The notes under the pieces are model-generated. The model was given only the letters and a program-made list of their open reading frames with translations. It was not told the origin of the DNA and did no database searches. Source: Shigella phage SP21535. Taken from it: DNA of 64,000 nt. The stretch lies in the sequence record PQ615101; one strand, written 5' to 3'. Of this stretch, positions 2 through 58,400 are shown piece after piece. The number at the start of each line of letters is the position of its first letter. Within the stretch, counting starts at the first letter, position 1. The position numbers and the translations under genes were made by a program.

Positions 2-139
2 TCAAAGGAATTTTCTCGTTTAGGAAAAGAGGAAATGATGGCTGAGATGCTTCAAAGAGGATTTGAATATAATGAATCTGACACTAAAACACAATTAATA
101 GCTTCATTTAAGAAGCAGCTTAGAAAGAGTTTAAAATGA
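2..139 (+). CDS. 3' end of an upstream hypothetical gene, truncated by the window edge; its TGA overlaps the nrdD ATG (ATGA)
   Basis: Open frame 2 from the window start to TGA at 137-139; no product recognised. Confidence 0.35.
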   Translation, partial: SKEFSRLGKEEMMAEMLQRGFEYNESDTKTQLIASFKKQLRKSLK

Positions 140-673
140 CGATTGAAAAAGAAATTGAAGGATTAATTCATAAAACTAATAAAGACCTTTTAAACGAGAA
201 TGCTAATAAAGATTCTCGTGTTTTTCCAACTCAACGGGACCTTATGGCTGGTATTGTGTCTAAACATATTGCCAAAAATATGGTCCCGTCTTTTATTATG
301 AAAGCGCATGAAAGCGGAATTATTCACGTGCACGATATTGATTATTCCCCTGCTCTTCCATTTACTAATTGCTGTTTAGTAGATTTAAAAGGAATGCTTG
401 AGAATGGATTTAAGCTCGGTAATGCACAGATTGAAACTCCTAAATCAATCGGTGTTGCTACTGCAATTATGGCACAAATTACTGCGCAGGTTGCTTCTCA
501 TCAATATGGCGGAACGACTTTTGCGAATGTAGATAAAGTACTTTCTCCTTATGTTAAACGCACCTACGCAAAACATATTGAGGATGCGGAAAAATGGCAA
601 ATCGCTGATGCATTGAATTATGCTCAATCTAAAACAGAAAAAGACGTATACGATGCATTCCAGGCGTATGAGT
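136..673 (+). CDS. nrdD: Anaerobic ribonucleoside-triphosphate reductase NrdD, exon 1
   Basis: ORF track 136..681; recognised as T4 NrdD N-terminal region; the frame continues in the downstream ORF after a 1 kb insertion carrying an endonuclease ORF. Confidence 0.85.
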
Positions 674-884
674 TAATTTAATTCAGGCTCATGTAAAACC
701 GGTCTAAACGGGGAACCTCTCTAGTAGACAATCCCGTGCTAAATGTTCTTTTGAACTAAATGCCTAACGACTAACCGTGATGAATGTAGCGGTGTAGAAT
801 AGAAGCTAATGCTATTCGAAACGGCCGGCATCGAAAGATGAAGATATAGTCTAATCTGCATGGCGACATGCAGCAGTCATCTTG

Positions 885-892
885 TATAAATA
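885..892 (+). promoter_or_regulatory. T4-type late promoter TATAAATA about 30 nt upstream of the intron ORF
   Basis: Exact TATAAATA at 885-892; a 7-bp stem hairpin CTGCATG-GCGA-CATGCAG lies just upstream at 856-873. Confidence 0.5.
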
Positions 893-921
893 AGATTATC
901 TTATGAATACGAGGTGAAACA

Positions 922-1692
922 ATGAAATGGATAAAAAGACGTTGTACTAAAATAAAAGATAAAGACGCATTTACATACTTAGTTAAGTTTTCTAATGGCG
1001 ACATTTATATCGGTTATAAAAAATTTAGAACAATTAAAAACAAGCCCACAAACTGGAAAACTTACACAACGTCATCTAAGTATATAAATGAACGCTTAAA
1101 AACTGATACACCTACTAAATGGATAATTTTAAAAACATTTGATAGTTATAAAGATGCATTAAAACATGAAGAAGAGGTCATACGTAAATATTTTTATAGC
1201 AAAAAATGTTTAAATAAATCCATAGGCGGTAAAAAGTTTTATAAGCATCCGGATACTGAAGAACATATTCAAAAATTAAGAGATGCTCATAAGGGTAAAG
1301 TGTTATCCGAATCTCATAAAAACAATATAAAATCTTCTGTAGCTGAATATTATGCTAAAAACGGAAGATCTAAGGAACATGTGCAAAATAATATCAATAG
1401 TCGAAAAAGTAAAAAACAAGTATCGATAAAGCTTAAAAATAAAACTTTTAGAAGTTTTAAAAAAGCAGCGGAATATTTAAATTGCACTGAAAGTGAAGTC
1501 GAAACTCATCCTCTTGTTTTGAGTATTAAGACTACTATTCATAAAGTTCCTGAATATGTGGTTGTTGACGGTATTAAGTATACGTCTTATATAGAAGCAG
1601 CTAAAGCGCTAAATTTTCATCCTAGCACTATAAAAGAACGTTGCATATCTATGGACTATCCAAATTTTGTTGTTTCATATAAACGGGCATGA
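922..1692 (+). CDS. I-TevII: Intron-encoded GIY-YIG homing endonuclease (I-TevII-like)
   Basis: ORF track, 256 aa; N-terminal GIY...YIG-like motif (DIYIGYKKF); location inside the nrdD intron as in T4. Confidence 0.8.
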   Translation: MKWIKRRCTKIKDKDAFTYLVKFSNGDIYIGYKKFRTIKNKPTNWKTYTTSSKYINERLKTDTPTKWIILKTFDSYKDALKHEEEVIRKYFYSKKCLNKSIGGKKFYKHPDTEEHIQKLRDAHKGKVLSESHKNNIKSSVAEYYAKNGRSKEHVQNNINSRKSKKQVSIKLKNKTFRSFKKAAEYLNCTESEVETHPLVLSIKTTIHKVPEYVVVDGIKYTSYIEAAKALNFHPSTIKERCISMDYPNFVVSYKRA

Positions 1693-1706
1693 ATTTGCGA
1701 CTCATG

Positions 1707-2998
1707 CTGAATATAATGATGAAGTAAATACACTTTTCAGCTCTAATGGACAAACGCCTTTTGTAACAATTACATTTGGTACGGGAACTGACTGGACTGA
1801 ACGAATGATTCAGAAAGCAATTCTGAAAAATCGTATTAAAGGTCTTGGTCGTGATGGGATAACTCCTATTTTCCCTAAGCTTGTTATGTTCGTTGAAGAA
1901 GGTGTTAATCTTTATAAAGACGATCCGAACTATGATATTAAGCAGCTTGCTCTAGAGTGCGCAAGCAAAAGAATGTATCCTGATATTATTTCAGCTAAGA
2001 ACAATAAAGCTATCACTGGTTCATCTGTTCCTGTTTCTCCGATGGGATGCCGTAGTTTCTTGAGCGTATGGAAAGATTCGACTGGCAATGAAATTCTTGA
2101 TGGACGTAATAATCTTGGTGTTGTAACATTGAATCTTCCTCGCATCGCGTTAGATTCTTATATTGGAACACAGTTCAATGAACAGAAATTTGTTGAATTG
2201 TTCAATGAGCGAATGGATTTATGTTTTGAAGCTTTGATGTGTAGAATTAGTTCCTTAAAAGGAGTTAAAGCGACTGTTGCTCCTATTCTTTACCAAGAAG
2301 GTGCATTCGGGGTTCGTCTTAAACCTGATGACGATATAATTGAGTTATTTAAAAACGGCAGAAGTTCAGTGTCTTTGGGATACATTGGTATTCACGAATT
2401 AAATATTCTTGTCGGTCGTGATATTGGACAAGAAATTTTAACTAAAATGAATGCTCATCTTAAACAGTGGACTGAAAGAACCGGATTTGCTTTTAGTTTA
2501 TATTCGACTCCTGCTGAAAACCTTTGTTACCGCTTCTGTAAACTTGATACAGAAAAATATGGAAGTGTAAAAGATGTTACCGATAAAGGCTGGTACACTA
2601 ATAGTTTCCATGTTTCAGTAGAAGAAAATATTACTCCGTTTGAAAAGATTTCTCGTGAAGCGCCATATCATTTCATTGCGACAGGTGGTCACATTTCTTA
2701 TGTTGAACTTCCTGATATGAAAAATAACTTAAAAGGCCTTGAGGCCGTGTGGGATTATGCTGCACAACATTTAGATTATTTTGGTGTTAATATGCCAGTA
2801 GATAAATGTTTTACATGCGGAAGCACCCATGAAATGACTCCTACTGAAAACGGATTTGTTTGTTCTATTTGTGGAGAAACTGATCCTAAAAAGATGAATA
2901 CAATAAGAAGAACATGCGGATATCTTGGAACTCCTAGCGTTGTTCCATGGAATTTAGGTAAAATGAAAGAAATGGTAAAACGAGTAAAACATGCATAG
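1707..2998 (+). CDS. nrdD: NrdD exon 2 (C-terminal part with glycyl-radical motif RRTCGYLG)
   Basis: ORF track 1667..2998; frame joins exon 1 via the inferred splice; the alternative 3' splice site after G1718 cannot be excluded. Confidence 0.85.
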
Positions 2999-3821
2999 GT
3001 ATTATATAATTTATAAAATAACAAATATAATTAATTCAAAGGAATATATCGGTGCGCATAGCACCGATAACATAAATGACGGTTATATGGGGTCAGGAAC
3101 ATTGATTCGTGCCGCTTTATTAAAATATGGTAGAAAAAATTTTAATAAAGAAATTTTACATGTTTTTGATAATGAAAAACAAATGTATGATAAAGAAGCT
3201 GAACTTGTAACCGAAGAGTATTGTCTAAAAGAAAATACATATAATATTAAACCTGGTGGAAAAGGTGGAACTGCCTATGAACAGACACTTGAACATCGCC
3301 GCAAAAATAGTTTAGCAAATAAAGGTAAAAAGAGAACAGAAGAAACTAAAATAGCTATTTCACGTGCTTTAAAGAAATATAAACGTACGCCAGAGCATCA
3401 AGCAAATTTAAATAAAGCCGTAAGCATAGCTATGAAGCGAAAAGATGTTAGAAGTAAATTAGCTGGAGAGCGGTCTGAGAAAGATAAATTATCTATATCA
3501 AACGGTGTTAAAAAATATTACAATTCTTTGAGTGAAGAAGAACGCGAACTTCATCGCAAGCGAATTATTGAAGGTAAAAAGAATTCTCCCATGTCATTGG
3601 AATCTAGACAAAAGCTTTCAAAAGCTTTAAAAGGACTTCAAGTTGGTTCAAAAAATCCAATGTATGGAAAAATTTCTCCAACTAGCAAAACCGTTTCAGT
3701 TGACGGTATTAAATATGATTCAATTAAAAAGTGCTCAAATGCCATAAAAGTTTCTAGACATCTTATACTAAAACGCTGTAATTCTACTGATGAAGCTTGG
3801 AAAAATTGGATATTATTATGA
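2991..3821 (+). CDS. Free-standing GIY-YIG homing endonuclease (Seg-like) wedged between nrdD and nrdG
   Basis: ORF track, 276 aa; N-terminal YIIYKITN...EYIGAH (GIY-YIG), basic repeat-rich C-terminus; ATG overlaps the nrdD stop and its TGA overlaps the nrdG ATG. Confidence 0.75.
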   Translation: MHRYYIIYKITNIINSKEYIGAHSTDNINDGYMGSGTLIRAALLKYGRKNFNKEILHVFDNEKQMYDKEAELVTEEYCLKENTYNIKPGGKGGTAYEQTLEHRRKNSLANKGKKRTEETKIAISRALKKYKRTPEHQANLNKAVSIAMKRKDVRSKLAGERSEKDKLSISNGVKKYYNSLSEEERELHRKRIIEGKKNSPMSLESRQKLSKALKGLQVGSKNPMYGKISPTSKTVSVDGIKYDSIKKCSNAIKVSRHLILKRCNSTDEAWKNWILL

Positions 3822-4288
3822 ATTATGACAGAATATATCCGTGCTGCTTTGTTAATGGTCCTGGATGCAGGACAGTTCTTTTCGTTACAGGTTGTTTGCA
3901 TAAATGCGAAGGGTGTTATAATAAATCAACATGGAATGCTAGAAATGGCGTTCCATTTACTGGTGAAACACTAGAACAATTAATTGAATGTTTGAATAAT
4001 GATTATATAGAAGGATTAACTATAACTGGAGGTGACCCTCTTTATCCTGATAACCGAGATGATGTTCATTGCATTGTTCAAACTGTAAAAAATCTTTATC
4101 CAAATAAAAGCATTTGGTTGTGGACAGGGTACAAGTTTGAAGATATTAAACAACTAGAAATGCTTAAATATGTTGATGTTATTATTGATGGGAAGTATGA
4201 GAAAAATCTTCCAACCAAAAAGCTGTGGCGAGGTTCAGATAATCAGCGACTTTGGTCAAATACCGATGGGGTGTGGAAACATGATTAA
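3818..4288 (+). CDS. nrdG: Anaerobic ribonucleotide reductase activating protein NrdG
   Basis: ORF track 3797..4288; ATG at 3818 gives 156 aa, the T4 NrdG length; cysteine motif CxxxCxxC. Confidence 0.85.
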   Translation: MNYDRIYPCCFVNGPGCRTVLFVTGCLHKCEGCYNKSTWNARNGVPFTGETLEQLIECLNNDYIEGLTITGGDPLYPDNRDDVHCIVQTVKNLYPNKSIWLWTGYKFEDIKQLEMLKYVDVIIDGKYEKNLPTKKLWRGSDNQRLWSNTDGVWKHD

Positions 4289-8561: not shown

Positions 8562-8627
8562 GAGCTTCGGCTCCTATATTGCTTTATAAATTTTTGGTAA
8601 AATAAACCAAAACAAAGAGGATATTAA

Positions 8628-9830
8628 ATGAAAGTATGTATTTTTATGGCTCGAGGTCTTGAAGGTTGTGGTGTAACAAAATTCTCACTCGAGCAACGTG
8701 ATTGGTTTATTAAAAATGGTCATGAAGTGACTTTGGTTTATGCTAAAGATAAATCATTTACTCGTAATTGCGCGCATGATTATAAATCATTTTCAATTCC
8801 AGTTTTATTGGCAAAAGAATACGATAAAACACTTAAGCTGGTAAATGATTGTGATATTCTAATTATCAATTCAGTTCCTGCTACTTCGGTTGAAGAAGAC
8901 ACTATTAATAACTATAAAAAAATTATTGATAACATTAAACCTTCTGTTCGTGTTGTAGTTTATCAACATGACCATTCTTCTCTTTCTTTACGCCGAAATT
9001 TGGGATTAGAAGAAACTGTTCGTCGAGCTGATGTTATTTTTAGTCATTCTGACAATGGTGATTTTAATAAAGTTTTAATGAAAGAATGGTATCCAGAAAC
9101 AGTTTCTCTGTTTGATGATATTGAAGAAGCACCGACAGTATATAACTTTCAGCCTCCTATGGATATTGCGAAGGTTCGATCAACCTACTGGAAAGATGTT
9201 TCTGAAATTAACATGAATATCAACCGTTGGATTGGTCGTACGACTACATGGAAAGGCTTTTATCAGATGTTTGATTTTCATGAAAAACATCTTAAACCTG
9301 CAGGACTAAGTACTATTATGGAAGGTCTGGAACGTTCTCCAGCGTTCATTCCTATTAAAGAAAAAGGAATTCCATACGAGTATTATCGTCTTCATCAAGT
9401 AGACCAAATTAAAATTGCTCCTAATTTGCCAACGCAAATTCTCGACCGTTATGTAAATAGCGAAATGCTTGAACGCATGAGTAAATCCGGATTTGGTTAT
9501 CAGCTGAGTAAATTAGATAAAAAATATCTACAACGTTCTTTAGAATATACTCATCTCGAGCTTGGTGCATGCGGAACAATTCCAGTATTTTGGAAATCTA
9601 CGGGCGAAAATTTGAAATTCCGTGTTGATAACACTCCGTTAATTTCTCATGATAGCGGTATCGTTTGGTTTGATGAAAATGACATGGAATCAACATTTGA
9701 ACGTATTAAAGAACTGTCATCTGACCGAGCTCTTTATGACCGTGAACGCGAAAAAGCTTATGAATTTTTGTATCAGCATCAAGATTCAAGCTTCTGCTTT
9801 AAAGAACAGTTTGACATTATTACAAAATAA
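8628..9830 (+). CDS. a-gt: DNA alpha-glucosyltransferase
   Basis: ORF track, 400 aa (the T4 alpha-gt length); recognised N-terminus CIFMARGLEGCGVTKFSLEQRDWFIKNGHEV. Confidence 0.85.
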   Translation: MKVCIFMARGLEGCGVTKFSLEQRDWFIKNGHEVTLVYAKDKSFTRNCAHDYKSFSIPVLLAKEYDKTLKLVNDCDILIINSVPATSVEEDTINNYKKIIDNIKPSVRVVVYQHDHSSLSLRRNLGLEETVRRADVIFSHSDNGDFNKVLMKEWYPETVSLFDDIEEAPTVYNFQPPMDIAKVRSTYWKDVSEINMNINRWIGRTTTWKGFYQMFDFHEKHLKPAGLSTIMEGLERSPAFIPIKEKGIPYEYYRLHQVDQIKIAPNLPTQILDRYVNSEMLERMSKSGFGYQLSKLDKKYLQRSLEYTHLELGACGTIPVFWKSTGENLKFRVDNTPLISHDSGIVWFDENDMESTFERIKELSSDRALYDREREKAYEFLYQHQDSSFCFKEQFDIITK

Positions 9831-20232: not shown

Positions 20233-20973
20233 ATGATTAATAACTCTATGACAGTTGAAGAAATCCGTCTTTATTTGGGAATTGCATTAAAGGAAAAAGA
20301 TTTCGTAATTGATAAAACCGGTGTTAAAACTATTGAAATTATTGGTGCATCATTTGTAGCAGATGAACCTTTTATTTTTGGCGCTCTTAATGATGAATAC
20401 ATTCAGCGTGAACTTGAATGGTATAAGTCTCAAAGTTTGTTTGTTAAAGATATTCCAGGTGAAACGCCAAAGATTTGGCAACAGGTAGCATCTTCTAAAG
20501 GCGAAATTAACTCGAATTATGGTTGGGCCATCTGGTCAGAAGATAACTATGCTCAGTATGACATGTGTTTAGCTGAACTTGGTCAAAATCCTGATTCTCG
20601 ACGTGGTATCATGATTTATACTCGTCCATCTATGCAGTTTGACTACAATAAAGATGGTATGTCAGATTTCATGTGTACGAATACAGTACAGTACCTGATT
20701 CGTGATAAGAAAGTCAATGCAGTGGTTAACATGAGAAGTAATGATTGCTGGGCAGGCTATCGTAATGATTATGCATGGCAAAAATATGTACTAGATAAAT
20801 TAGTATCTGATTTGAATGCAGGTGATTCAACTCGTCAGTATAAAGCAGGTTCCATTATATGGAATGTCGGGAGCCTTCATGTGTATTCCCGTCATTTTTA
20901 TTTGGTTGACCATTGGTGGAAAACTGGCGAAACTCATATTGCGAAAAAAGATTATAACGGTGAGTGGAAATGA
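20233..20973 (+). CDS. 42: dCMP hydroxymethylase gp42
   Basis: ORF track, 246 aa (the T4 length); thymidylate-synthase-like fold. Confidence 0.9.
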   Translation: MINNSMTVEEIRLYLGIALKEKDFVIDKTGVKTIEIIGASFVADEPFIFGALNDEYIQRELEWYKSQSLFVKDIPGETPKIWQQVASSKGEINSNYGWAIWSEDNYAQYDMCLAELGQNPDSRRGIMIYTRPSMQFDYNKDGMSDFMCTNTVQYLIRDKKVNAVVNMRSNDCWAGYRNDYAWQKYVLDKLVSDLNAGDSTRQYKAGSIIWNVGSLHVYSRHFYLVDHWWKTGETHIAKKDYNGEWK

Positions 20974-21812
20974 TTCAATTCGTAATTCCAAGCTATCAAC
21001 GCGTAGGGGCAGTTTCTGCCCTTGATATGTTTCCGACTGATTATGAACCTCATATTGTAGTACGTGAACATGAAGAAAAAGCTTATTATGACGCTTACGG
21101 GTCTAGAGCTAAAATTATAACTATTCCTGATGATGTTAATGGAATTGCTGGTACTCGTAAAGCAATTACTGATATGTATGCAGGTCAACGAATTTGGATG
21201 ATTGATGATGATACTACTATTCGTATGAGTTCAATACGAAAGAGAGACGATAAACGGCGTGTAGATAAAGTCAATCAATTGACTCGTGAGCAATTCTATG
21301 AATTAATTCAATACGTTGAGGATGCAATGGATTGCGGGTATTATCATGGTCATGCTCGTTTACCAATTTTTAAAATTACTTCATCTTGGGGTAATTATCG
21401 TGAAAATTCATATGGATTCACGAATACATGGTATGATTTAGGAAAACTTACAACAGAACAAATTGGGTATGGAAAAATTGATTTATGTGAAGATATGTAT
21501 GCATTTCTCAATTTAATTAATCAAGGTTATCCGCATTTGGCCTTGTTCAAATATCTAGTTGTATCTGGAAAAGCACAAGCTCCTGGCGGATGTAGTTCAA
21601 TTCGTAGTAATTCAAAACATAATAGAGCTCTTGAGCAAATCAATAGAGAGTTTCCAGAGCAAGCTCGTTGGAAAACATCGAATATTGAAAAACGAAAATC
21701 GTTGGGTGAAGAAGATGAACCGCTAAAGGTTCTTCGCATGTGTGTTTCGCGTAAAGAAAAATCAGAAGCATTTCATAAGTTTAATGCTATTCATCCAATA
21801 GCAGTTGATTAA
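20970..21812 (+). CDS. Putative glycosyltransferase with a DxD-type motif at the T4 beta-gt locus (candidate HMC-DNA glucosyltransferase)
   Basis: ORF track 20964..21812; ATG at 20970 overlaps the gene 42 stop; IWMIDDDTT motif; 280 aa, unlike the 351-aa T4 beta-gt. Confidence 0.55.
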   Translation: MIQFVIPSYQRVGAVSALDMFPTDYEPHIVVREHEEKAYYDAYGSRAKIITIPDDVNGIAGTRKAITDMYAGQRIWMIDDDTTIRMSSIRKRDDKRRVDKVNQLTREQFYELIQYVEDAMDCGYYHGHARLPIFKITSSWGNYRENSYGFTNTWYDLGKLTTEQIGYGKIDLCEDMYAFLNLINQGYPHLALFKYLVVSGKAQAPGGCSSIRSNSKHNRALEQINREFPEQARWKTSNIEKRKSLGEEDEPLKVLRMCVSRKEKSEAFHKFNAIHPIAVD

Positions 21813-21889
21813 TGCCTAAATTTATTGTGTTATAATTACCCTATCTTTAACCAGTGAGGAAAATATAATGATGCTTATGGAAAAAATGA

Positions 21890-22819
21890 ATGTCTATTGC
21901 AGATTTAAAATCCCGTTTGATTAAAGCTTCCACTTCTAAAATGACTGCTGAACTGACTACATCTAAATTCTTTAATGAAAAGGATGTAATCCGTACAAAA
22001 ATCCCAATGCTTAATATCGCTATTTCTGGCGCGATTGATGGCGGCATGCAGTCTGGTTTAACTATTTTCGCAGGGCCTTCTAAACACTTTAAATCAAATA
22101 TGTCTTTGACTATGGTTGCGGCATATTTAAACAAATATCATGACGCAGTTTGTCTATTCTATGATAGCGAATTTGGTATTACTCCAGCTTATTTGCGATC
22201 CATGGGAGTTGACCCGGAACGAGTAATTCATACGCCAATTCAGTCAGTTGAACAGCTGAAAATTGATATGGTGAACCAGCTTGAAGCTATTGAGCGTGGT
22301 GAAAAGGTTATTGTATTCATCGACTCAATCGGTAATATGGCTTCTAAGAAAGAAACGGAAGATGCCTTGAATGAAAAATCTGTGGCAGATATGACTCGTG
22401 CTAAATCACTGAAGTCATTATTCCGTATTGTTACTCCTTATTTTAGCATTAAAAATATTCCATGTGTTGCGGTTAACCATACAATTGAAACAATTGAACT
22501 GTTTAGTAAAACCGTGATGACAGGTGGTTGTGTTATTGCTGGTACTAAAATCCAGATGTCCGATGGTTCTACTAAAGCAGTTGAAGATATTCGTCCAGGT
22601 GAGCGTGTTAAAACCATGGTCGGTGATAATGAAGTAACTTATGTTTGGGACCCCGAAACTCTGGCTGAAGGTACTCCTGAATGTTTCGAAATTGAATTCG
22701 AAGACGGTTATAAAGTAACTACTTCAGATACTCACAAGTTCCTGGTAATGGTTAAAGACATTCCAACTTGGGTTGAAGCTAAAGATTTAGTAGCTGGAAT
22801 GGATTGTGTTGTAAGGTAA
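21890..22819 (+). CDS. uvsX: UvsX recombinase N-terminal fragment (213 aa) fused in frame to an N-terminal split-intein half (96 aa); ends in tandem TAA TAA
   Basis: ORF track; residues 1-213 match the T4 UvsX N-terminus through ...SKTVMTGG, then Cys plus intein blocks A and B. Confidence 0.85.
   Translation: MSIADLKSRLIKASTSKMTAELTTSKFFNEKDVIRTKIPMLNIAISGAIDGGMQSGLTIFAGPSKHFKSNMSLTMVAAYLNKYHDAVCLFYDSEFGITPAYLRSMGVDPERVIHTPIQSVEQLKIDMVNQLEAIERGEKVIVFIDSIGNMASKKETEDALNEKSVADMTRAKSLKSLFRIVTPYFSIKNIPCVAVNHTIETIELFSKTVMTGGCVIAGTKIQMSDGSTKAVEDIRPGERVKTMVGDNEVTYVWDPETLAEGTPECFEIEFEDGYKVTTSDTHKFLVMVKDIPTWVEAKDLVAGMDCVVR
22529..22816 (+). mobile_element. Split intein, N-terminal half (Hint blocks A and B)
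   Basis: CVIAGTKIQMSDGSTKAVEDIRPGERV (block A) and TTSDTHKFLV...TWVEAKDLVAGMDCV (block B). Confidence 0.8.
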
Positions 22820-22824
22820 TAAAT

Positions 22825-22862
22825 ATGGGTACCGGACTAATGTATATTTTTGAGGTACCCAT
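22825..22862 (+). promoter_or_regulatory. Hairpin (9-bp stem ATGGGTACC/GGTACCCAT, 20-nt loop) occluding the endonuclease RBS and abutting its ATG
   Basis: Perfect inverted repeat at 22825-22833 and 22854-22862; SD-like GAGGT at 22852-22856 lies in the 3' arm. Confidence 0.6.
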
Positions 22863-23585
22863 ATGAATTTTGTCTATAAAATTGTGTTCAACGATAGAAT
22901 TAAAAACGGCACTCCGCCATATTACTACATAGGGAGCAAGACAAATGCTTCTTATGTAGATGGTAAGATTATTGACGCCCACGGTCGTGAGTACTATGGC
23001 TCATCGAGATATCCCGGATATCATGATTTTATCAATAATGTTACTGTTGAAATATTGGAGCAATATGATGATATTAAACACACTAAACTGCTAGAGCGCG
23101 AAAATTTCTATCAGAAACAAGTAAATGTTAAAACAAATCCAGATTATTTTAATTTAGATTATGCTTGTGGGCATAATTCATATGCTAATGCTGATTTTGC
23201 ATCATACAAGCATTATATAACAGGTAAATGTATTCGTCTTGAAAGAAACCATCCGCTTGTTAAATCTGGTGTGTATGTTGGCGTCACAAAAGGCGTGAAA
23301 TCTTCTGATGAACACCGCAAGCACATATCAGAAGGTATTACCGGAGAAAACAATGGGTTCTATGGTAAGAAACACACTAAAGAAACAATTAATAAAATAT
23401 CAGAAAAAGCAAAGAAAAGATTAAAGCATTCCCATCCTAGACAAAAAGGTGTTATCATAAACGGTATTGAATACCGGGGCGTCAGACCTGCTGCAAGAGC
23501 GTTGGGAATTAATCCTAACACAATTATCAACAAAATTAAAGCTAATATAAAAGGATGGGCTTATGCAGTAGATGCACGCGGTTAA
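22863..23585 (+). CDS. Free-standing GIY-YIG homing endonuclease between the two uvsX intein halves
   Basis: ORF track, 240 aa; YKIVFN...YYYIGSKTN (GIY-YIG); basic repeat-rich C-terminal region. Confidence 0.8.
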   Translation: MNFVYKIVFNDRIKNGTPPYYYIGSKTNASYVDGKIIDAHGREYYGSSRYPGYHDFINNVTVEILEQYDDIKHTKLLERENFYQKQVNVKTNPDYFNLDYACGHNSYANADFASYKHYITGKCIRLERNHPLVKSGVYVGVTKGVKSSDEHRKHISEGITGENNGFYGKKHTKETINKISEKAKKRLKHSHPRQKGVIINGIEYRGVRPAARALGINPNTIINKIKANIKGWAYAVDARG

Positions 23586-23693
23586 GGCATTCGAAGATAT
23601 GGTAAAAGAATTTGGAATGAACATGACAATCAAGATTATGCTTTCATGAAATATGTATATTGAAACTAGCTACTACGAAACACAAGGTAAAGT

Positions 23694-23798
23694 ATGAAAA
23701 TTAAATCTGTTAAATCTGTTGGTAAAAAAGAAGTCTATGATTTGTCTGTTGCTGACGTCGAGCATTATGTTTTAGAAAATGGTATCGTTACACACAAC
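23694..23798 (+). mobile_element. Split intein, C-terminal half (blocks F and G, ending HN, with +1 Thr)
   Basis: VYDLSV...HYVLENGIVTHN followed by T. Confidence 0.8.
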
Positions 23799-24341
23799 AC
23801 AGGCGTAATGTATTCGGCTGATACTGTATTCATTATCGGTAAGCGCCAGATTAAAGATGGTTCTGATCTTCAGGGGTATCAATTTGTTCTAAATGTAGAA
23901 AAATCTCGTACCGTTAAAGAAAAAAGTAAATTCTTTATTGATGTTAAATTTGACGGTGGCATCGATCCTTATTCTGGATTGTTAGATATGGCTCTTGAAT
24001 TAGGATTTGTGGTAAAACCTAAAAATGGCTGGTATGCTCGTGAATTTCTTGACGAAGAAACAGGCGAGATGATTCGCGAAGAAAAATCTTGGCGTGCAAA
24101 AGATACCAACTGCACTACATTCTGGGGTCCTTTATTTAAGCATCAGCCATTCCGAGATGCTATTAAACGTGCTTATCAGTTAGGTGCTATTGATAGTAAT
24201 GAAATTGTTGAAGCTGAAGTTGATGAATTAATTAACTCAAAGGTTGAAAAATTTAAATCTCCAGAAAGTAAAAGTAAATCAGCAGCTGATTTAGAAACTG
24301 ACCTAGATCAGTTAAGTGATATGGAAGAATTTAATGAATAA
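23694..24341 (+). CDS. uvsX: C-terminal split-intein half (35 aa) fused to the UvsX C-terminal fragment (180 aa)
   Basis: ORF track; MKIKSVKSVGKKEVYDLSVADVEHYVLENGIVTHN then TGVMYSADTVFIIGKRQ..., which matches the T4 UvsX C-terminus. Confidence 0.85.
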   Translation: MKIKSVKSVGKKEVYDLSVADVEHYVLENGIVTHNTGVMYSADTVFIIGKRQIKDGSDLQGYQFVLNVEKSRTVKEKSKFFIDVKFDGGIDPYSGLLDMALELGFVVKPKNGWYAREFLDEETGEMIREEKSWRAKDTNCTTFWGPLFKHQPFRDAIKRAYQLGAIDSNEIVEAEVDELINSKVEKFKSPESKSKSAADLETDLDQLSDMEEFNE

Positions 24342-28823: not shown

Positions 28824-30162
<1,339 letters not shown>

Positions 30163-30223: not shown

Positions 30224-30742
30224 ATGGCTCACTTTAATGAATGCGCTCATTTGATCGAAGGTGTTGATAAAGCAAATCGTGCATATGCTGAGTATATTAT
30301 GCACAGTATTGACCCATTGCAGGTTATGCTTGACATGCAGCGGCATTTACAGATTCGTTTGGCTAATGATAAACCAGAAACAAATCGTCATCCCGATTCA
30401 CTTGAAACTGCAGGAGAAGTTCTTGCTTGGCTGCGAAACCAAGACGATTATATCGCAGACGAAACTCGCGAGTTATATACTTCTCTTGGTGGTATGAGTA
30501 ATGGTGAAAAAGAAGCTTCTGCTGTATGGAAACCTTGGAAGAAACGTTATTCTGAAATGCAATCCAAGAAAATTCAAGATTTATCTCCTGAAGATCAACT
30601 TGAAATTAAATTTGAACTGATTGATCAATTTCACTTTTTCATGAATAAATTCATTGCTCTTGGAATGTCAGCTGAAGAAATCTTTAAACTTTATTATCTG
30701 AAAAATGCTGAAAATTTCGCTCGTCAAGACCGAGGTTATTAA
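30224..30742 (+). CDS. 56: dCTPase/dUTPase gp56 (MazG-like)
   Basis: ORF track 30209..30742; ATG at 30224 with AAGGAAAA; recognised sequence. Confidence 0.85.
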   Translation: MAHFNECAHLIEGVDKANRAYAEYIMHSIDPLQVMLDMQRHLQIRLANDKPETNRHPDSLETAGEVLAWLRNQDDYIADETRELYTSLGGMSNGEKEASAVWKPWKKRYSEMQSKKIQDLSPEDQLEIKFELIDQFHFFMNKFIALGMSAEEIFKLYYLKNAENFARQDRGY

Positions 30743-30942
30743 TGGCTCGTTTAAATAAACGTCAACTTAAGAAAGCCCACAAGAAACGTATTGACCAGCT
30801 ATTTAAAGATTATGACAAGGAGCTCACATATGAGCTCTTATCTAATCAGCTTCGTATGGTTGATTGGGTTGCAGAAGAAAGCCCTGACGAAATTTTTGTA
30901 AGTGAAGAAGCCTTAAAATTAATTATAGAGCATTCAAAATGA
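30742..30942 (+). CDS. Hypothetical protein (66 aa; soc.2-like position)
   Basis: ORF track; lies between 56 and soc, where T4 carries segF. Confidence 0.45.
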   Translation: MARLNKRQLKKAHKKRIDQLFKDYDKELTYELLSNQLRMVDWVAEESPDEIFVSEEALKLIIEHSK

Positions 30943-31112
30943 AAATATCCAAAGAAGAATTTATTAGACGTCAAAAAGCTTTAATTAATTTACATGAGTG
31001 GTATGCTTATCAACTTAAAGTAGATAGCTCTAACATAAATGCTGTAATGGCTTTATATAAACAAATTCAAGATGAGCATGAATTCCTGGCACAAGTTTTC
31101 ATTGAAGATTGA
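30939..31112 (+). CDS. Hypothetical protein (57 aa; soc.1-like position)
   Basis: Hand-translated MKISKEEFIRRQKALINLHEWYAYQLK...; ATG overlaps the upstream stop. Confidence 0.4.
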   Translation: MKISKEEFIRRQKALINLHEWYAYQLKVDSSNINAVMALYKQIQDEHEFLAQVFIED

Positions 31113-31120
31113 TATAAATA
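31113..31120 (+). promoter_or_regulatory. T4-type late promoter TATAAATA upstream of soc
   Basis: Exact TATAAATA 31 nt upstream of the soc ATG; soc is a late capsid gene. Confidence 0.6.
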
Positions 31121-31151
31121 CATCTGTAATTAAACAATAAAGGAGTTTATT

Positions 31152-31388
31152 ATGGGTGGTTTCGTTAACATCAAGACCTTTACTCATCCAGCGGGTGAAG
31201 GCAAAGAAGTTAAAGGTATGGAAGTTTCTGTTCCGTTTGAAATTTATTCTAACGAGCATCGTATTGCAGATTCTCATTATCAGACCTTTCCTTCTGAAAA
31301 GGCGGCATATTCTACTGTAGTTTCTGATGCAGCTGACTGGAAAACTAAGAATGCTGCAATGTTTACGCCTACAACAATAGGTGGTTAA
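31152..31388 (+). CDS. soc: Small outer capsid protein Soc
   Basis: ORF track, 78 aa; HYQTFPSEKAAYSTV motif recognised from T4 Soc; RBS AAGGAG. Confidence 0.75.
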   Translation: MGGFVNIKTFTHPAGEGKEVKGMEVSVPFEIYSNEHRIADSHYQTFPSEKAAYSTVVSDAADWKTKNAAMFTPTTIGG

Positions 31389-41490: not shown

Positions 41491-43308
41491 ATGATTAAGA
41501 ATGAAATTAAAATTCTGAGCGATATTGAACATATCAAAAAGCGTAGCGGCATGTACATTGGCTCTTCAGCTAATGAAATGCATGAGCGCTTTCTGTTTGG
41601 TAAATGGGAAAGTGTTCAGTATGTACCTGGTCTTGTTAAGCTTATTGATGAAATTATCGATAACTCAGTAGATGAAGGTATTCGTACTAAGTTTAAATTC
41701 GCAAATAAAATTAATGTTACTATTAAAAACAATCAAGTAACAGTTGAAGATAACGGTCGCGGTATTCCACAGGCGATGGTTAAAACACCTACCGGTGAAG
41801 AAATTCCTGGTCCTGTTGCTGCATGGACTATTCCAAAAGCAGGTGGTAACTTCGGTGATGATAAAGAACGCGTCACTGGCGGTATGAATGGTGTTGGTTC
41901 TAGTTTGACAAACATTTTTTCTGTGATGTTTGTCGGTGAAACTGGTGATGGTCAAAATAATATTGTAGTTCGTTGTTCAAATGGCATGGAAAATAAATCA
42001 TGGGAAGATATTCCTGGAAAATGGAAAGGAACCCGTGTTACTTTCATTCCTGATTTTATGTCATTTGAAACTAATGAGTTGTCCCAAGTTTATCTTGACA
42101 TTACACTAGATCGTCTCCAGACACTTGCTGTTGTTTATCCTGATATTCAATTTACCTTTAATGGTAAAAAGGTTCAGGGCAATTTTAAGAAATATGCACG
42201 ACAGTATGATGAACATGCTATCGTTCAAGAACAAGAAAATTGTTCTATTGCGGTTGGTCGTTCACCGGATGGATTTCGTCAATTAACATACGTCAATAAC
42301 ATTCATACTAAGAATGGTGGTCATCACATTGACTGTGTTATGGATGATATTTGTGAAGACCTTATTCCGCAAATCAAACGTAAATTCAAAATTGATGTAA
42401 CTAAAGCACGTGTTAAAGAATGTTTGACTATCGTTATGTTTGTTCGTGATATGAAAAACATGCGGTTTGATTCTCAGACTAAAGAGCGTTTAACTTCTCC
42501 TTTTGGTGAAATTCGTAGTCATATTCAGCTTGATGCTAAAAAGATTTCACGCGCTATTCTAAATAATGAAGCAATTCTAATGCCGATTATCGAAGCTGCT
42601 TTGGCTCGTAAATTGGCGGCAGAAAAAGCAGCAGAAACTAAAGCAGCTAAAAAGGCTTCTAAAGCTAAGGTTCATAAACATATCAAAGCGAATCTTTGTG
42701 GTAAAGATGCTGACACTACTCTTTTCTTGACTGAGGGCGATTCTGCTATCGGATATCTTATTGATGTTCGTGATAAAGAACTTCATGGTGGTTATCCATT
42801 GCGTGGTAAAGTTCTCAACAGTTGGGGTATGTCATATGCCGATATGCTTAAAAACAAAGAACTGTTTGATATTTGCGCAATCACTGGATTAGTTCTTGGC
42901 GAAAAGGCAGAGAATACGAACTATCGTAATATTGCAATTATGACTGACGCAGATCACGACGGTCTTGGAAGTATCTATCCGGCTTTGCTTGCTTTCTTTA
43001 GTAATTGGCCTGAATTGTTTGAACAAGGACGTATTCGCTTTGTCAAAACTCCTGTAATCATCGCTCAGGTCGGTAAAAAACAAGAATGGTTTTATACAGT
43101 CGCTGAATATGAGAGTGCCAAAGATACACTGCCTAAGCATAGTATTCGATACATCAAGGGATTGGGCTCACTTCAGCGGGATGAATATAAAGAAATGATT
43201 CAAAACCCTGTGTACGACGTAGTTAAACTTCCTGAGAACTGGAAAGAGCTTTTTGAAATGCTCATGGGAGATAATGCTGACCTTCGCAAAGAATGGATGA
43301 GCCAATAG
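41491..43308 (+). CDS. 39: DNA topoisomerase II large subunit gp39, uninterrupted (605 aa)
   Basis: ORF track 41488..43308; ATG at 41491; GHKL ATPase N-terminus; covers what T4 splits into genes 39 and 60. Confidence 0.9.
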   Translation: MIKNEIKILSDIEHIKKRSGMYIGSSANEMHERFLFGKWESVQYVPGLVKLIDEIIDNSVDEGIRTKFKFANKINVTIKNNQVTVEDNGRGIPQAMVKTPTGEEIPGPVAAWTIPKAGGNFGDDKERVTGGMNGVGSSLTNIFSVMFVGETGDGQNNIVVRCSNGMENKSWEDIPGKWKGTRVTFIPDFMSFETNELSQVYLDITLDRLQTLAVVYPDIQFTFNGKKVQGNFKKYARQYDEHAIVQEQENCSIAVGRSPDGFRQLTYVNNIHTKNGGHHIDCVMDDICEDLIPQIKRKFKIDVTKARVKECLTIVMFVRDMKNMRFDSQTKERLTSPFGEIRSHIQLDAKKISRAILNNEAILMPIIEAALARKLAAEKAAETKAAKKASKAKVHKHIKANLCGKDADTTLFLTEGDSAIGYLIDVRDKELHGGYPLRGKVLNSWGMSYADMLKNKELFDICAITGLVLGEKAENTNYRNIAIMTDADHDGLGSIYPALLAFFSNWPELFEQGRIRFVKTPVIIAQVGKKQEWFYTVAEYESAKDTLPKHSIRYIKGLGSLQRDEYKEMIQNPVYDVVKLPENWKELFEMLMGDNADLRKEWMSQ

Positions 43309-54628: not shown

Positions 54629-54659
54629 AGACCCTCCTTTTAAGGATATTTATTCAAAA

Positions 54660-55454
54660 TTATACTCTTGAACCATATATTGTACCAACTTTAGTCCAAG
54701 TTGGAGCATTACCAGTAACAGCTTTACCTGCTGCGCCAGGTGAGTTCGAATAGCCGCTCAATCTAACCGCATCCTTACCTCGTTCACCAACGTTACCGCC
54801 ATCGCCGCCGTAGTATCCAACGCCGGAATACATTTTTCCGCCTGCACCTGGAGATGTTAAAGATGCCGATGCGCCCGGGGCTGCTGCGCCATTATTGCCA
54901 CCAGCTCCGAAAGGACGTCCACCGCCACCGCCAGAAACATATTTACCTCCCCATCCATTATCAGTTGATTGGGCGCCACCACCGCCACCACCGCCAGCAA
55001 TCGCTCCATTGTTAGTGATTCGTAGACGAGTACCTATACCATTGTTAATTGCAGTACCGCCAGCTTGGCCTGCCTGGTTTCCCGCTTGCGCGCCACGACC
55101 ACCACGACCATATACTGTTACGCCACCATTTATAATAAGCGTTACATAAGCATTAGTTAATGAACTAGGAAAATCTAAGCAAGGTTGCCCAGCTGATGAA
55201 GAAACAATATTTCCTGTAATAGTAACAACAACAGGAGTACTACCTTGAGATTTGAGATAATTTATTAGCGTGTCTTTATTATATGAATTACTAGCGCCAA
55301 TACTGTAATATACTTCTTTAGATTGCCCAGCCATTGAGCTCATCCAACCAGGAACTGAAACACGAACTGCTTTCATTGCAGCATCCATCCAGCGTTGTCC
55401 AGTTTCATTCACGGCAGATTCGCCAATCCAGCCAGGAACACCTACAATTGCCAT
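54660..55454 (-). CDS. 38: Long-tail-fiber tip adhesin gp38 (T2-type, glycine-rich motifs)
   Basis: ORF track, 264 aa; multiple poly-Gly motifs (GGGGGGG, GGGGGRPFGAGG) between variable segments. Confidence 0.85.
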   Translation of the reverse strand: MAIVGVPGWIGESAVNETGQRWMDAAMKAVRVSVPGWMSSMAGQSKEVYYSIGASNSYNKDTLINYLKSQGSTPVVVTITGNIVSSSAGQPCLDFPSSLTNAYVTLIINGGVTVYGRGGRGAQAGNQAGQAGGTAINNGIGTRLRITNNGAIAGGGGGGGAQSTDNGWGGKYVSGGGGGRPFGAGGNNGAAAPGASASLTSPGAGGKMYSGVGYYGGDGGNVGERGKDAVRLSGYSNSPGAAGKAVTGNAPTWTKVGTIYGSRV

Positions 55455-55465
55455 TAAAAATCCTT

Positions 55466-55483
55466 AGAGGGCCGAAGCCCTCT
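55466..55483 (-). promoter_or_regulatory. Hairpin (AGAGGGC-UUCG-GCCCUCU) between the gene 37 stop and the gene 38 RBS
   Basis: Perfect 7-bp stem on the - strand directly after the gene 37 stop; AAGGA RBS follows. Confidence 0.45.
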
Positions 55484-55484
55484 T

Positions 55485-58400
55485 TTACATAAGTTTAGAT
55501 TCAAGTTCTTTTACACGAGAAGAAAGTGTTTTCACAGCTTCAACCAGAAGAGCAATCTGGGCTTGAGAAGAAACAGTGAGTATTTTATTACCCTTGCTAT
55601 CTTCTGTTTCACGGACGGCTTCTGGTAAAACGTCTTGCAACGTTTGAGCCACAATACCTGCTTCAGTTTCAATTGCCTCTCCACCGATGTATTCAGCTTT
55701 ATCGTAAATGACACCGTTAAGTTTTTCAACTTTATCAAGTGCATTTTCGATAGGTTTAAAGTTGGATTTTAAACGAATATCAGAACGAATATAAACGTTT
55801 GGAGCATTTATATTTTTATATGAGTACAAATCACCGTTTTGGAAACGGAATACTTGTACACTGTTCGCATATATGTCTAATAATCCATCGCCATTTTGCT
55901 TAATACCAGTATCGCTATCGCCAAATGCTATACTATTTCCACCAAGTGCGTTATTGATATTAATACCAAATGAATTCATTTGGTTAACACCAGCTACAGT
56001 AGCATTATTTACTACAAAACGGTTAGCTCCACCTGGAGCTTTTTCAAAGTAAGCAATATAGTTAGTTTCATCGGCAATTTCAATACGGTTACCACGAGAA
56101 GCATCGCCAGCATGAAATATTCTCATATTTCTTGGGTTAGCACCAGACTTATCAAAGTTAATAGAACCATTATCTTTGACATTTATGCTATTATAGAATA
56201 AAGCAGCACTGCGAACAGCTATGCCGTTATTCATTAATACTTCGCCTGTTGTTAAGTTAATTGCGAAAGGACGCTTACTATTCCAATCACCGTTAACAGT
56301 TGCTTCGCCATCGGTGGCATTTTTATCTGTAAACAGAATATAAAAACTACTGCCATCATTTCGTAGCATTGTAGCAACAGAACCAGTTTTATCGCTGTTG
56401 CTTCTAATACGAATACCAGTTTGGTTATTAATAGCTATTTCAGAATCGGCTTCATAACGCTTAACTTTGCCGCGATCAACCAAGTTATTAAGAACATTAG
56501 CAACTTGCCCATCAACTGCTGTATCTGGAAGAGCATCCACAGGTGATTGGGTAGATGAGTTAATACCAATAACGCTAACAGTAGCATTTTCGGTACATGA
56601 CCATTCACAAGTTAATTGATTGCAATATGTTCCGGCATAAACATAAATGTCATATGTATCTCCAGAGACGTTATTAACTGCAATATTTTTAAATGCAGCT
56701 GCAATTGTTCTTGTGTATAATACAGCATTTAAGTCAGCAGGTCTTTCATTACTAGTACGTAAAACAATTTCAGCAATATTGCATTGTGTGAATAATCCAC
56801 TATTAAATCCAGAACCACCGGCTATTTTAAAGAAGACCGTAGAAGTGGATTGTGGCATTGTTACTGTTGCAAACTTATACCATCCAGCAGTTGCTCCATA
56901 AGTAATAAATCCAGAATTAACTTTACGATTTAGCGTGGTGTTTAAGTTAGCAAAGTTTCCTGAACCGCTAGTAATATTACCGTCAGTTCCTAGTTGGGCA
57001 TTTCCGACTTTAAAGGGTTTAGTGATTGACACGAAATTATCACTTATAACAAGACCATGTCCATAAGATTGGCTATAAAGTGATAAATCATTTCCAGCAC
57101 CACCAAGACCAACATACCACGATCTAGTTCCAGCTTTAGAACCCTGCAAATAATTAGCAGAAGAAGATGAAGGAGAATCTAGAGTAAGCGCTGCATTACG
57201 TTCATTAATAGTTACTGGACATATCATTTTAATAGTTTTAAGACTATTACTTACTTGTAATAATCCTGTACCAGATCCAGAATCTCCTAAATGAACATCA
57301 TGCGACATTTTAACTGTGCCGGTGTTCAGTTCTATTATCAATGGTCTAAGATTACTTATACCGCCAGATTCTCCAGCATCTTTAAGAGTCGGGATAATAT
57401 AAAGATTACTTTCTGAGCGACGGAAAATAGCACCATATTCGGCATTCCAAATTCTTAATGCATCAGCAGTTCCGCCGATTTTAACTTGTCCAGTAATAGA
57501 AGAACCACCTTGGACAAACAAACCATTAGACATGGTAACATTACCGACTAAAGTGCTTAATCCATTAACTTTAAAACTTCCGTCAGTAATAATACTTCCT
57601 CTAGCATTAACAGCTCCAGCAAACTGGGTTACAACAGGACCAGTAGTTTCTGAGCCGCTTGGGGCTACACGCTGGGAATAAAAATAATAACCTTGTCCGT
57701 CAGCTACTTCAAAAACTGTTTCACGATTACGATCGCCAGATGCGTTAAATGAATTACCCCACGCTTTAACGGTTACATAGCTTTTATTTTGACCAGCACG
57801 CTTACCGCCTTCCCACATGATTTGCTTAGTACCATCAATTGTAGTAGTTGGAGCGAATGTCAGCCCAGCAGTAGAATTATTAGCTGCTAAATATATGCCG
57901 TTATATATTGAAAGCTGCTTAACAGATGTAATACCGCCATCAGCATAAAACATTACATTATTTGCACCGGTTACTAGTTTAAGAATACCCGGGTTAACTT
58001 CCATGCCTTCTTGAGTATTAATATTAGTTTTTCCTTTACCACGGAAATAGTGGTTCATTTTACCGCCAGAGTTATATCCAATGTGGGTTTGACCATCTCC
58101 AGCAGAGTTTTCATCAGCCTGTGTTTGAACTGATAAAAATGCAGCATTCGTACCTGGCATAATCCAAGTTGCACCTTGGTCTTCTGAACGTCCAAATAAT
58201 GCTTTACGAGTACTACGGAAACTGTCAGGAGTAATAGACGCGATAGAAAGACCATTAGCAACTAAATCATATACACCAGATCTTTTATATGATATACCAG
58301 TTGCGGCATCTCCAATGACTATATAGCATTCACCCATTGCTCCAGTGGAGCCGTAATTATTAATGTTTTCATCTGTTGTAATTGTACCAATTGCGAGTGA

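Follow-up and report, generated by a model that had tools for sequence, protein, structure and literature searches.

The open reading frame wedged between nrdD and nrdG in the 64,000-nt stretch of Shigella phage SP21535 DNA analyzed here (PQ615101; hereafter the window) is almost certainly segH, the free-standing GIY-YIG homing-endonuclease gene that T-even phages carry at the nrdD/nrdG junction and that probably spreads by intronless homing. Its product was identical to the SegH protein of phage RB3 (ABI48949.1) at 276 of 276 residues, and at the DNA level the gene shared 99.9% identity with the RB3 copy and 99.8% with that of LZ2. The gene is annotated as segH in T6 (AY262137.2), RB3 (AY262138.2), LZ2 (AY262139.2), and PP01, and the LZ2 record places it between nrdD and nrdG. 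An initial annotation of the window had implied that the endonuclease was new, and had stated that this would be contradicted if the protein proved identical to an endonuclease known from the same locus. Such an identity is what we found, residue for residue with RB3 SegH and at the same locus in T6, RB3, LZ2, and PP01. The gene and its site are already known, and the observation is correct but ordinary.

The name segH reportedly goes back to work by Sandegren, Nord and Sjöberg in Nucleic Acids Res 2005, in which the gene was assigned to the nrdD/nrdG position of T6, RB3, and LZ2. In that study SegH is said to have shown endonuclease activity, with a cleavage specificity close to its own locus, and both segH-containing and segH-less DNA were reportedly cut by the enzyme. 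Homing of SegH in mixed infections is likewise said to have been observed there. Because the gene, the site, and the activity were published in 2005 and the gene is annotated in dozens of genomes, the locus carries little weight as a discovery.

The two ends of the gene interlock with its neighbors. At the 5′ end the sequence reads AAA C ATG CAT AGG TAT, which in the nrdD frame becomes AAA CAT GCA TAG, with the segH ATG at 2991-2993 and the nrdD stop codon TAG at 2996-2998, an overlap of 8 nt. At the 3′ end (TTA TTA TGA ATT ATG AC) the segH TGA occupies 3819-3821 and the nrdG ATG lies at 3818-3820, inside an ATGA that has three bases in common with the segH TGA, for an overlap of 4 nt. The ATG at 3818 opens MNYDRIYPCCFVNGPGCR, the N terminus of NrdG. 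Identical 8-nt and 4-nt overlaps are annotated in the GenBank records of RB3, T6, and PP01. Thus the sequence and these annotations agree with what had been proposed for both ends, an ATG overlapping the last nrdD codons and a TGA overlapping the nrdG ATG, and the ORF list, the sequence, and the family evidence described below bear out a 276-aa GIY-YIG gene at this junction. The ORF is not a product of chance, given its match to PHROG 314 ("homing endonuclease," 2e-60), its 100% identity to RB3 SegH, and its presence at full length and at least 90% nucleotide identity in 70 phage records. Coordinates of the gene, its domains, and the surrounding features are collected in Table 1.

Table 1. Position of segH, its parts, and associated features in the window
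Feature	Position	Strand	Details
segH coding sequence	2991..3821	+	ATG start, 276 aa and TGA stop; ORF list, sequence
N-terminal GIY-YIG catalytic domain, aa 1-95	2991..3275	+	motif Tyr8 (IIY), Tyr19-Ile-Gly21 (YIG), Glu69, Asn85
Perfect 9-bp inverted repeat	3047..3069	+	TATCGGTGC-GCATA-GCACCGATA, segH codons 19-27
Helical linker with NUMOD3-type repeats	3276..3665	+	run of helices aa 100-213 in model
NUMOD3 match, aa 200-228	3588..3674	+	Pfam 33.8 bits, cut-off 20.4
C-terminal I-TevI-like DNA-binding domain, aa 226-273	3666..3809	+	Pfam, Foldseek, BLASTP
nrdD with ORF-containing intron	136..2998	+	ORFs, T4 map, identity profile
I-TevII-like ORF in nrdD intron	922..1692	+	56% aa identity to T4 I-TevII
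segH-linked variant nrdD 3′ end	2917..2998	+	encodes ...GTPSVVPWNLGKMKEMVKRVKHA and stop
nrdG (anaerobic RNR activase)	3818..4288	+	156 aa; Pfam Fer4_12 4e-48; annotations in RB3, T6, PP01
uvsX-locus GIY-YIG-type ORF	22863..23585		between two uvsX halves

To place the protein in its family, we carried out the alignment against the T4 Seg and Mob proteins that the initial annotation had suggested. A BLASTP comparison with the proteins of the T4 record returned SegD (3e-34; 32% identity over 263 aa), SegC (2e-33), SegB (1e-30), SegE (1e-28), and SegA (5e-24), and the N-terminal domain was 45 to 54% identical to the N termini of T4 SegA to SegE. The same comparison revealed no similarity to the T4 Mob proteins, the best of which, MobC, gave an E value of 9.5. 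Membership in the Seg family was thereby upheld and membership among the Mob proteins was not. SegH and T4 SegA to SegE resemble each other in the catalytic domain, where they have in common the block Y-x-I-T-N...K-x-Y-I-G-x-H-x-T...DGYMGSG...KYG...YN, and SegD can be aligned over nearly its full length. They differ in their loci, their targets, their linker and C-terminal regions, and their size, which is 140 to 223 aa for the T4 proteins compared to 276 aa for SegH.

The closest structural counterpart of SegH is I-TevI, the endonuclease of the td intron (PDB 1MK0, 1LN0, and 1I3J). When SegH was searched as a single sequence against PDB chains, only noise was returned; a profile built from 40 homologues and searched against all PDB sequences yielded the I-TevI catalytic domain as its sole match (E = 0.012). 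An AF2 model of the protein had a mean pLDDT of 88, rising to 94 to 98 across the N-terminal domain (the first 90 residues), with strands at aa 4 to 12 and 18 to 25, the two that hold the tyrosines of the GIY and YIG motifs. In a Foldseek search of the PDB, the top match to this model was 1MK0 (probability 1.00, target-normalized TM score of 0.67, root mean square deviation of 3.3 over 100 columns), and 1I3J, the DNA-binding domain of I-TevI on its substrate, was matched with a probability of 1.00 and an E value of 0.022. No other fold in that search reached an E value below 0.9, which left the two I-TevI domains, catalytic and DNA-binding, as the only meaningful matches. The C-terminal assignment was further reflected in a BLASTP match to the C terminus of T4 I-TevI (E = 0.005) and in a match to the Pfam I-TevI_DNA-bd model (E = 3e-4) that, at 21.1 bits, falls under the 27-bit cutoff. 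SegH has the layout of I-TevI: an N-terminal GIY-YIG nuclease domain, a helical linker of the NUMOD3 type, and a C-terminal DNA-binding domain of the helix-turn-helix type. Both of the solved end domains of I-TevI are matched by the corresponding part of the SegH model. I-TevI is encoded within an intron, whereas SegH is free-standing, and sequence identity between the two amounts to only about 22 to 25%.

The Tyr, Glu, and Asn residues expected of an active GIY-YIG nuclease were retained. Tyr8, Tyr19, Gly21, Glu69, and Asn85 were invariant in 40 of 40 homologues, and Ile20 was nearly so. In the alignment with I-TevI, Tyr8 and Tyr19-Ile20-Gly21 fall on Tyr6 and Tyr17-Val18-Gly19, and Asn85 falls on Asn90; Glu69 lies one column off Glu75 in ungapped alignments and is kept in all T4 Seg proteins. 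Arg27 of I-TevI lies within a 9-residue segment that the Seg proteins are without, and for this reason its counterpart cannot be placed by sequence. Arg40 of SegH sits in the first helix, at a position that is not conserved in T4 SegA to SegE. Loss of catalytic residues, which had been put forward as the mark of a pseudogene, was not observed at the Tyr, Tyr, Glu, and Asn positions, all of which are present. To judge from its sequence, segH is intact and without signs of a pseudogene. The general GIY-YIG model PF01541 had no match to SegH at E values up to 0.01, and PF19835 (SegE_GIY-YIG) scored 18.6 bits, under its 25-bit cutoff; homologues at 33 to 65% identity carry both PF01541 and PF19835 among their precomputed matches. 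Given the evidence from fold and residues, we attribute these misses to the sensitivity of the models, and the assignment of SegH to the GIY-YIG nuclease superfamily is supported.

We then surveyed the nrdD-nrdG junction across a phage collection. The junction was empty in 563 records, as counted with a 241-nt probe spanning the vB_EcoM_F1 junction and a required probe coverage of 80% or more. It held segH in 72 records (megablast of the 831 bases of the gene, with 54 records at 99% identity or more) and mobC in 32, none of which fell below 99% identity to mobC of T4. In vB_EcoM_F1, whose slot is empty, the end of nrdD runs straight into the start of nrdG, the two genes overlapping at CAATGAATTATG. 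Among close relatives the gene is thus either present or absent at one particular junction of conserved genes, outside any intron or intein, as is expected of a free-standing homing endonuclease gene. Across the 54 records segH was 99 to 100% identical, and it could match at 100% although the 4.3 kb around it reached no more than 98.4% identity; near-identical genes in differing backgrounds suggest recent spread rather than decay. In 21 records segH was combined with the nrdD intron and its I-TevII-like ORF. The population pattern, as far as sequence comparison can tell, fits intronless homing, as do the flank variants linked to segH that are described below.

These counts put population figures on a polymorphism with three states (empty, segH, or mobC) at a single site, where unrelated selfish nucleases appear to be rivals for one place in ribonucleotide-reductase operons. 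The T4 annotation places mobC in the nrdD/nrdG slot, as does Table 1 of the review by Edgell (mobC at nrdG/nrdD), and a preprint describes segH as standing in place of T4 mobC between nrdD and nrdG. MobC resembles SegH in its intergenic slot, its orientation, and its overlap with both neighbors, but it carries an HNH domain and as a protein is unrelated to the GIY-YIG SegH. In T4, the first ~300 nt of nrdG show strong divergence, which is not seen in the segH and empty alleles. We considered whether T4 mobC had duplicated the first seven nrdG codons (MNYDRIY) upon insertion; this idea is weakened by the fact that all T4 Mob proteins start with MNY..(I/V)Y. The initial annotation is silent on mobC, T4's own endonuclease gene in this slot.

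Neither a sigma-70-like promoter, a late promoter of the form TATAAATA, nor a MotA box was found in or just upstream of segH, and the first 4.6 kb contain a single TATAAATA, located at 885, before the intron ORF. With no promoter found, segH seems to be a cassette that relies on the nrdD-nrdG message for its transcription. Its start is preceded by a weak Shine-Dalgarno-like GAG, which together with the nrdD overlap suggests low-level re-initiation. For T4 segC, segF, mobA, and mobC, the Edgell review describes overlapping starts with scanning or re-initiation. RNA folding of positions 2960 to 3100, a region that includes the inverted repeat, gave −21.3 kcal/mol, more stable than shuffled sequences (z = −2.4). 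The hairpin at the repeat was ruled out as an internal terminator of the mobE kind, as no T-run follows it on the plus strand.

By its identity to RB3 SegH and by its family, the most likely function of SegH is intronless homing. The gene would be transcribed together with nrdD and nrdG, as its family and the literature lead us to expect. Its translation is probably weak and due to re-initiation where nrdD ends, and translation of nrdG may in turn be coupled to termination at the end of segH. During a mixed infection, SegH would cut both strands of co-infecting phage DNA at a specific site close to the nrdD-nrdG junction, and recombination-dependent repair with the segH genome as template would transfer segH, together with the markers beside it, to the broken genome. 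The outcome would be intronless homing and marker exclusion. The mechanism of Seg enzymes and marker exclusion by homing endonucleases of T-even phages are both documented in the literature.

Two other roles for the gene can be weighed against homing. It could be a decaying or domesticated remnant that has lost its cleavage activity and persists only because translation of nrdG, through the ATGA coupling, and the integrity of the operon depend on it. The lack of a promoter of its own and the tight interlocking with nrdD and nrdG are what such a remnant would look like, retention of endonuclease genes is, according to the Edgell review, favored by embedded regulatory signals, and an equivalent of I-TevI Arg27 is not identifiable in SegH. 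Yet the ORF is not truncated, none of the residues invariant in the family is missing, its product is identical to an RB3 protein annotated as the SegH homing endonuclease, and its 99 to 100% identity across 54 records of differing backgrounds suggests spread, not decay. Moreover, HEG-less phages couple nrdG directly to nrdD by the same kind of overlap, so that nrdG does not need segH. We consider a remnant very unlikely.

The main role of SegH could also lie in competition or defense between phages, with the enzyme cutting co-infecting relatives so that their markers or genomes are excluded, and the spread of its own gene being secondary. According to Sandegren et al. in 2005, SegH reportedly cuts segH-containing DNA as well, which an element devoted to homing alone would not usually do. 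Homing endonucleases of T-even phages are documented to cause marker exclusion, and a 2026 paper describes SegB as helping T6 to evade a bacterial defense. Such competition, however, extends the homing mechanism and does not replace homing, and most relatives (563 records) thrive with nothing in the nrdD/nrdG slot. A primarily competitive role is likewise very unlikely in our estimation, and intronless homing is the more probable function of SegH.

The sequence linked to segH reaches into both neighboring genes. We aligned three segH alleles against empty and mobC alleles and compared their C-terminal translations: the segH-linked nrdD ends in GTPSVVPWNLGKMKEMVKRVKHA, whereas HEG-less and mobC alleles encode a tail ending in GNPNERGFNLGKNKEIMHRVKHQ instead. 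On the other side, alignment of the first ~30 nt of nrdG revealed segH-linked substitutions, including a change of Asp10 to Cys. Both variant flanks were common to all of the segH alleles examined (window, RB3, PP01, and T6). Further out, the window was 94 to 100% identical to the empty-allele phage vB_EcoM_F1, which delimits the traveling unit to segH with the last ~80 nt of nrdD and the first ~30 nt of nrdG. A 76-nt variant nrdD tract was present in 80 phage records, compared to 72 with segH; the 8 or so that have the tract but no megablast match to segH may reflect decay or replacement of the gene. The variant stretches of nrdD (~80 nt) and nrdG (~30 nt) are most simply explained as flanks co-inherited with the cassette. 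Because free-standing endonucleases are able to cut hundreds of base pairs from their own genes, we only infer that these variants could be a co-conversion tract or a resistant target.

More distant relatives of SegH indicate that its link with the 3′ end of nrdD predates the cassette of the coliphages. Two such proteins at 47 to 48% identity (P0003 and P0004) are encoded 50 nt downstream of nrdD on distant T4-like contigs, where nrdG follows ~2 kb further on. It is conceivable, if rather doubtful, that SegH and the 3′ end of nrdD have been partners for a long time and that the mobile unit consists of the endonuclease plus a recoded, cleavage-resistant target. Were this true, a recoded-target cassette would bear on the reported self-cleavage by SegH. 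The details that are new here, namely the linked flank variants and the nrdD-adjacent relatives at 47 to 48% identity, are modest. We also considered whether ATGCATAGG, with which segH begins, had been copied from the Met-His-Arg codons of empty-allele nrdD, with a 16- to 17-nt recoding patch that restores the end of nrdD, and dropped this idea after ungapped alignment. Since the two NrdD tails are of the same length and can be aligned residue by residue, plain divergence of a homologous tail suffices, and the 9-nt match of ATGCATAGG to empty-allele nrdD may be due to chance.

For annotation, the window is of use as a T6/RB3-like Tequatrovirus region with a set of mobile endonucleases unlike that of T4. 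A map of the window against T4 and a tblastn search with all T4 endonucleases confirmed the earlier count of three GIY-YIG genes (Table 1) and the claim that the endonuclease complement differs from T4. The map also agreed with the reported absence of mobB (gap at 8612-8637) and segF (30742-31207) at their T4 positions, and segA (20955-21902) and mobA/60.1 (42908-42972) were missing from it as well. The tblastn search found no homologues of the T4 Mob (HNH) proteins in the window, and T4 mobC was absent by both map and search. Two of the names given earlier needed adjustment. The gene called I-TevII in nrdD is a GIY-YIG intron ORF as described, but its identity to T4 I-TevII is only 56% (Table 1). 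The endonuclease described as embedded in uvsX is likewise present, and more precisely it sits between two uvsX half-genes with split-intein halves.

Compared with its counterparts in RB3, T6, and LZ2, the segH of the window is alike in protein, locus, overlaps, and linked variant nrdD 3′ end, and differs only in genomic background, as nrdD here also contains an intron with the I-TevII-like ORF. In the partial RB3 record and in PP01, nrdD is annotated as uninterrupted, unlike in the window. An Rfam scan of the whole window at the gathering score matched no family, the nrdD group I intron included. The DNA of this intron was 58 to 72% identical to the T4 intron and 99 to 100% identical to the intron of vB_EcoM_F1.

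Over the first ~300 nt of nrdG, the stretch adjoining the endonuclease gene, the window (3818-4118) is just 52-82% identical to T4, in which the HNH gene mobC occupies the nrdD-nrdG slot, but 90-97% identical to vB_EcoM_F1, an empty-allele phage whose junction carries no endonuclease gene. Because the window resembles vB_EcoM_F1 and not T4 over this stretch, we conclude that it is the mobC allele that has the strongly diverged flank, rather than the allele of segH, the GIY-YIG gene found here between nrdD and nrdG. In T4, mobC opens with ATGAATTATGACAGAATCTAT (MNYDRIY), and the same seven codons open nrdG, which restarts 620 nt after the mobC start. This shared start may reflect a duplication of the target; alternatively, it may be a feature of the Mob family that resembles NrdG, as an MNY..(I/V)Y start is common to all T4 Mob proteins. 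Within segH itself, a hairpin lies in the region encoding the YIG motif, and the fold around it has a z of -2.4 relative to shuffled sequences.

In the window, nrdD holds a divergent variant of the intron and of the intron endonuclease. At the DNA level, the intron shares 58-72% identity with that of T4 but 99-100% with that of vB_EcoM_F1, where the annotation splits the intron ORF into two pieces. The Rfam scan did not detect the intron at the gathering score. A late-promoter consensus, TATAAATA, is present in the intron region at 885.

Coordinates of features in the window
Feature	Position	Strand	Remarks
Region of nrdD intron with endonuclease	650-1750	+	
nrdD-intron endonuclease ORF	922..1692	+	56% aa identity to T4 I-TevII
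Hairpin in segH	3047-3069	+	perfect 9-bp stem, 5-nt loop; codons 19-27
uvsX locus, two genes	21890-24341	+	
First uvsX ORF	21890..22819	+	UvsX N-part, then intein-like N-half (CVIAGTKIQ...); weak Hint matches
240-aa ORF separating the uvsX genes	22863..23585	+	NUMOD3
Second uvsX ORF	23694..24341	+	intein C-half (...VLENGIVTHN|T) at start, then UvsX C-domain (PF21134, 2e-39)
186-aa ORF between gene 61 and dam	28824-29384	+	in ~540-bp stretch

We also observed that uvsX is present as two genes, with an insertion of 1.28 kb relative to T4 uvsX. The product of the ORF separating them is 46% identical to T4 SegG at its N terminus. This organization looks like the "fractured gene" arrangement, which it resembles in combining a split intein with a free-standing GIY-YIG gene (Dassa et al. 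2009), and UvsX is absent from the hosts listed for that arrangement in the same study. Among 309 matching phage records, the split uvsX occurs in just 8, with no inteins annotated.

The background of the window looks like that of T6 and RB3, phages with annotated segH, rather than that of T4. Relative to T4, genes 39 and 60 are joined (42908-42972), without the mobA/60.1/bypass insertion; an 849-bp ORF (20964..21812, within 20955-21902) replaces beta-gt and segA; and the distal tail-fibre region (genes 37/38; 54653-59122) is unaligned or just 74% identical. In PP01, which also has an annotated segH, a beta-glucosyl-HMC-alpha-glucosyltransferase is annotated between genes 42 and uvsX. T4 lacks the stretch holding the 186-aa ORF, whose product gives a weak, subthreshold match (E 0.0045) to the Pfam DpnII (GATC) restriction endonuclease family and contains a PD-(D/E)XK-like motif (DIVIS...IIEIKH). 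The phage GATC methylase gene lies directly downstream.
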